From Escherichia coli (lineage in GTDB: Bacteria; Pseudomonadota; Gammaproteobacteria; Enterobacterales; Enterobacteriaceae): a stretch of DNA of 64,000 nt. The stretch is taken from the NCBI RefSeq assembly GCF_003018255.1, contig NZ_CP027440.1; one strand, 5' to 3'. The stretch's first letter is position 1; each line of letters starts with the position of its first letter. Positions 1,323-1,415 of this stretch are shown piece by piece. The notes under the pieces were generated by a model. It saw nothing but the letters and a program-made list of their open reading frames with translations. It did not search any database and was not told the DNA's origin. The position numbers and the translations under genes were made by a program.

Positions 1323-1345
1323 AAAAAGGCGCTCCGTGGAGCGCC
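1321..1345 (-). terminator. intrinsic terminator (GGCGCTCC-loop-GGAGCGCC then T-run on minus strand) ending malEFG operon; hairpin also follows psiE
   Basis: Inverted repeat with A7 run on plus strand = U-run for minus-strand transcript. Confidence 0.7.
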
Positions 1346-1415
1346 GAATAACAGTCACAAGTTGGGATAACGTAAGTTGAGGGTGCAGCGGCATAACATT
1401 GGCAGAACAACATCT

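Follow-up and report, generated by a model that had tools for sequence, protein, structure and literature searches.

XylE is a low-affinity xylose/proton symporter and XylFGH is an ABC xylose transporter. The reference arrangement around xylE is that of Escherichia coli K-12 MG1655, where the annotated gene order is yjbH, yjbT, psiE (b4030), xylE (b4031), malH (b4807, a small RNA) and malG (b4032). [quoted passage not shown] 2020, RNA Biol, PMC8081044). The xylE gene was listed among those gained by the A/B1 sublineage of E. coli (Gonzalez-Alba et al. 2019, BMC Genomics, PMC6896753). As far as the passages of that paper dealing with xylE go, the difference in gene content is therefore already known, through the proposed gain of xylE; those passages do not describe the insertion site or its MalH context, and our literature search found nothing combining xylE, psiE and malG.

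Here, we describe the same locus in a 64-kb stretch of E. coli DNA (hereafter, the window). The list of open reading frames places psiE at 912-1322 on the plus strand (136 aa, with the stop codon TAA at 1320-1322) and malG at 1416-2306 on the minus strand (296 aa), the two genes converging across a spacer of 93 bp (1323-1415) that represents the xylE insertion site in its empty state. Upstream of psiE are a yjbT-like ORF and the end of yjbH; malF, malE, malK and lamB lie downstream of malG. Compared by tblastn, PsiE of the window has 100% protein identity to K-12 PsiE and MalG has 99-100% identity to its K-12 counterpart; in genomes with a 100% match to positions 700-1900 of the window, the psiE ORF is annotated under that name. 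A sequence-only reading of the window had proposed that psiE adjoins malG at a distance of about 90 bp and that xylE appears absent, judging by a K-12 order of psiE, xylE, malG. The K-12 MG1655 annotation agrees with that order, psiE not being directly beside malG in K-12, and our alignment to K-12 confirmed that xylE is missing from the site in the window. Furthermore, K-12 XylE had 0 tblastn matches in the 64-kb window (E<=1e-3), while PsiE and MalG were detected, and neither tblastn nor the K-12 alignment revealed remnants of the xylE cassette in the window.

A second difference from K-12 lies upstream of psiE. Between the yjbT-like ORF and psiE (window 770-845), about 55 bases of REP-like sequence (GCCGGATGCGCCGCC...CTTATCCGGCCTAC) that are present in K-12 are missing, and a 144-bp 'hypothetical protein' is annotated in this interval in strains 47258 and 2013C-4225. 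The left flank is 93.6% identical to K-12 overall, and we considered that it could be imported DNA. This was rejected, as a single indel (about 55 bp) in front of psiE accounts for the low value and the flank is otherwise 98-100% identical.

Apart from these differences, K-12 and the window agree in the identity and orientation of psiE, MalH (terminator included) and malG. K-12 carries an additional 1,792 bases within the A-run that follows the psiE stop codon, and the window does not. The exact site of these bases is an A7 run at window positions 1321-1327, which includes the last 2 bases of the psiE stop codon and provides, on the opposite strand, the U-tract of the malG/MalH terminator. When aligned to the K-12 locus (L001), the left flank of the window extends up to position 2239, that is, through the psiE stop codon and AAA, while the right flank aligns from L001:4032, with the two alignments overlapping by 5 A. 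The right breakpoint is the annotated 3' end of K-12 malH. An A-run borders the 1,792-bp cassette on each side, one following the psiE stop codon and the other belonging to the malG terminator. The cassette consists of the xylE terminator hairpin (10-bp stem), xylE and a 276-bp upstream region with 34% G+C. In K-12, the xylE terminator obtains its T-run from the opposite strand of the A-run next to the psiE stop, and the second A-run precedes the MalH terminator. No transposase or integrase gene, terminal inverted repeats or att-like repeats were found on the K-12 cassette, which contains only xylE and its control regions and is bounded only by A5 runs. Thus, the breakpoint alignment shows the psiE stop codon and the malG/MalH terminator to be contiguous in the xylE-free allele, with no cassette between them.

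The sequence-only reading had named one terminator in the short spacer. The hairpin is indeed there, at 1328-1345 on the minus strand (GGCGCTCCACGGAGCGCC, followed by T7 on that strand in the terminator scan); the spacer is, however, also occupied in full by the MalH sRNA. K-12 malH corresponds to L001:4032-4134, and window 1321-1480 is identical to L001:4032-4191 at 160 of 160 positions. The malG 3'-end-derived MalH can therefore be transferred from the K-12 annotation to window positions 1321-1423 on the minus strand (103 nt), where this annotated form, seed region included, has 100% identity to the experimentally mapped K-12 MalH. The K-12 malH sequence with its terminator covers the whole spacer of the window plus 8 nt of malG. 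An Rfam scan of window 600-2400 gave no match at E<=1, and MalH is thus identified solely through the K-12 annotation and sequence identity. On these grounds, the 93-bp spacer reads as the malG 3' UTR, predicted to encode the MalH sRNA.

It was also proposed that the spacer holds one bidirectional terminator. Only the single hairpin stands. It has a 7-bp GC-rich stem with U7 on the minus strand, it corresponds to the 3' stem-loop in the RNA fold, and K-12 carries the same hairpin at the end of malG/MalH. The stem (GGCGCTC/GAGCGCC) is near-palindromic, and a GC-rich hairpin of this kind could be used on both strands. No T-run follows it on the plus strand, though, where the sequence continues GAATAACAG, and the consensus scan calls the minus strand only. 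We conclude that the hairpin at 1328-1345 is the malG/MalH terminator, ending the malEFG transcript that converges on psiE, and that bidirectionality is not supported by the T-run criterion. The two alleles also differ in what lies beyond this terminator: the xylE upstream region in K-12, and the abutting psiE stop codon in the window. As a consequence, transcription of psiE in the window would converge directly on the MalH terminator. The psiE gene of the empty allele lacks a hairpin plus T-run of its own, and readthrough antisense to MalH is possible.

We then determined how common the two alleles are, using window 700-1900 as a junction query against 5,426 complete E. coli genomes, 5,425 of which match. 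The uninterrupted, xylE-free psiE-malG junction is found in 1,786 of the 5,426 genomes, and 3,639 contain the K-12 xylE segment, almost always once (median one place). As 1,786 and 3,639 add up to the 5,425 matching genomes, the two classes are complementary, and xylE has not been relocated in genomes of the junction type. The xylE-free junction is therefore a common presence/absence polymorphism, carried by roughly one in three complete E. coli genomes. Across positions 700-1900, junction included, four independent complete genomes show 100% identity to the window. Genomes with the intact junction include the B2 strains NRG 857C and Ecol_AZ159, while in K-12 derivatives, O26:H11 and O157:H7 the junction is split by xylE; the xylE segment of O157:H7 (phylogroup E) is 99.1% identical to that of K-12.

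Not all xylE segments are intact. Among xylE-positive strains, the gene was disrupted independently by IS1 insertion in 675SK2 and 2017.18.02CC, PCN061 has lost all but the final 280 bp (16%) of the K-12 xylE segment, and coverage of the segment is below 80% in 13 genomes.

The state of the site outside E. coli was assessed by scanning around psiE in one genome per species, which yielded 80 Enterobacteriaceae loci, a sample that does not include E. fergusonii or Salmonella. At about 55 of the 80 (about two-thirds), psiE and malG lie about 90-120 bp apart without xylE, and about a dozen more have longer spacers, also without xylE. In E. albertii, E. whittamii and two further Escherichia species, the empty site aligns colinearly with the window, base for base, the psiE stop being followed by A6-7, by the GGCGCTCC...GAGCGCC hairpin and finally by the MalH body. 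The layout of stop codon, A-run and hairpin is still recognisable in C. koseri, Enterobacter, Trabulsiella and Klebsiella. Since the same empty site is present in non-coli Escherichia and in most Enterobacteriaceae, the absence of xylE that the sequence-only reading had observed is probably the ancestral state and not a loss. A separate case of a longer spacer is Escherichia sp. ESNIH1 (L035 6409-6970), where about 560 bp are taken up by a tandem REP/BIME-like array (GCCGGGCA...GCCCGGCCTACG units).

Among the 80 loci, xylE lies between psiE and malG in K. oxytoca and at 9 Citrobacter loci (C. werkmanii, C. youngae twice, C. gillenii and five Citrobacter sp.), which is consistent with all nine belonging to the C. 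freundii complex. It is also found in C. sedlakii, 5 kb downstream of psiE. The K. oxytoca cassette is flanked by a duplicate of about 16 bp of the native psiE 3' end, an insertion scar; the relatives K. michiganensis and K. grimontii have an empty site. The direct repeat lies at L069 6397-6412 and about 8305-8322, with the remnant CTGAAACGCGAATAA adjoining the malG terminator; about 150 bp separate this piece of the psiE 3' end from the xylE upstream region. The malG 3' UTR of K. oxytoca contains a further insertion of 134 bp relative to K. michiganensis. Nucleotide identity of xylE between E. coli, Citrobacter and K. oxytoca is 82-85%, the same as that of malG and with the same ranking. Recent transfer of xylE between these genera was accordingly rejected, xylE being no more similar between genera than malG. 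As the divergence of xylE equals that of malG, the cassette is old in some lineages.

Unrelated cassettes occupy the same psiE-malG site in other taxa (L041 6692-11003, L039 5013-9360 and L045 6397-8086). In one, PTS EIIC/B is accompanied by an isomerase, an asparaginase and a LacI regulator. A second, which C. sedlakii carries alongside xylE, encodes a PTS, a GFO/IDH/MocA oxidoreductase, DUF7916 and a GntR regulator, and a third encodes a LysR regulator and a HAD hydrolase. Their presence points to the site as an insertion hotspot. None of the ten inserted ORFs of psiE-malG cassettes that were scanned against Pfam is a recombinase, integrase or transposase.

Within E. coli, strain 2014C-3338 (NZ_CP027452.1) is 100% identical to the window over the 1.2-kb query (700-1900). 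Presence or absence of arpA is a marker of Clermont phylotyping. About 20-30 kb upstream of the window start, 2014C-3338 lacks both arpA (aceK abuts iclR) and yjaA (rrf abuts yjaB), a pattern that assigns it to the B2/F/G part of the species, our phylogroup assignments being based on two markers and a few spot checks. Between rluF and pepE, the same genome has an operon for a sorbose PTS (sorE and others) that K-12 does not have; the coordinates in question in 2014C-3338 are L003 9979-15692 and 23411-23428.

The arpA marker, about 20 kb upstream, resembles xylE in being a chromosomal presence/absence polymorphism that follows deep E. coli lineages, and both genes are missing from the window-like genome 2014C-3338, as they are from FDAARGOS_1286. 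Their distributions nevertheless differ, with no match to arpA in 1,321 genomes and none to xylE in 1,787. For this reason, and because strain 47258 is arpA-positive and xylE-negative, we rejected the possibility that absence of xylE is equivalent to the absence of arpA that marks B2/F/G; E. coli without xylE belong to both arpA-negative and arpA-positive lineages. We also saw no sign of a recent gain or loss between 47258 (xylE-negative) and 2013C-4225 (xylE-positive), whose flanking proteins are identical but whose DNA flanks differ by 1.4-2.3%. It should be noted that the K-12 arpA orthologue is named 'type III secretion system effector EspL4' or 'ShET2/EspL2 family effector' by RefSeq/PGAP. 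In about half of the genomes with arpA, the match covers only 69% of the K-12 gene and is split in two, indicating that a shorter form of arpA is common; arpA of 2013C-4225 measures 1,575 bp compared with 2,187 bp, and its annotation is that of a pseudogene containing an internal stop.

The window fits the previous proposal in that the passages on xylE in PMC6896753 imply that the D, F, G and B2 lineages lack this gene. Those passages describe an acquisition by A/B1, whereas in our data xylE is also present in O157:H7, which belongs to phylogroup E.

Taken together, we propose, with a probability of roughly 0.78, that the window carries the xylE-free allele of a common polymorphism and that its lineage never acquired the cassette, having kept the ancestral Enterobacteriaceae arrangement. 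The 1,792-bp cassette would have been inserted inside the A-run in K-12-like strains, xylE having entered the line from which phylogroups A, B1 and E descend, and the lineage of the window would never have received it. The empty site in the Escherichia relatives and in most of the 80 species makes the window most likely the ancestral state, and it is from this that we infer the direction of the event within E. coli. The junction itself gives no polarity, because with A5 repeats at both ends of the cassette either a slippage deletion or an allelic replacement would restore the exact empty sequence. An ancestor with psiE, xylE and malG could thus have lost xylE secondarily, by deletion between the A-runs or by homologous replacement with an empty allele, a route that the A5 microhomology at both ends would favour. 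The equal divergence of xylE and malG between genera is compatible with ancient residence followed by many losses, and the IS1 insertions and the partial deletion in PCN061 (16% left) show that xylE has been inactivated independently elsewhere. We nonetheless consider secondary loss unlikely, as the four non-coli Escherichia and both arpA-negative and arpA-positive xylE-less E. coli share the same clean site, which would require many independent and precise losses, and as no remnant of the cassette was found in the window.

Two further explanations for the missing gene fare much worse than secondary loss. Relocation of xylE to another part of the same genome is extremely improbable, given that XylE has no match in the window, that the two classes of genomes sum to 5,425 and that xylE-positive genomes carry the segment at a median of one place. 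The window search and the complementary genome classes together make it very likely that xylE is absent from the whole genome of the window strain. A collapse of the region during sequencing or assembly is equally hard to credit, since the four complete genomes are identical over 700-1900, 1,786 genomes share the junction and other species have the same architecture.

We tentatively suggest, as a possibility that we do not favour, that the psiE-malG junction is a cross-genus hotspot at which recombinase-free carbohydrate-uptake cassettes are swapped by flank homology, with xylE as a long-lived polymorphism that tracks host divergence. For example, the cassette would be xylE in E. coli, the C. 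freundii complex and K. oxytoca, while other Citrobacter would carry PTS operons. If this were true, psiE of the empty allele, without a canonical terminator, may read antisense through MalH.

The physiological effect of lacking xylE is expected to be limited. As 5,405 of the 5,426 complete E. coli genomes contain xylFGH at >=80% coverage, nearly all strains without xylE keep the ABC xylose transporter, and their phenotype would be the loss of the low-affinity proton symport route only, with xylose uptake through XylFGH. Metabolic models and xylose engineering in non-K-12 hosts should not assume XylE, and work on MalH in strains without xylE should note that psiE converges directly on the terminator of the sRNA. 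The overall importance of the finding is small and its practical consequences are modest, as this is an ordinary difference in gene content. Based on our findings, xylE is an accessory and not a core gene of E. coli, missing from about a third of complete genomes, including the AIEC B2 strain NRG 857C, and the K-12 gene order is thus not the default of the species at psiE-malG.
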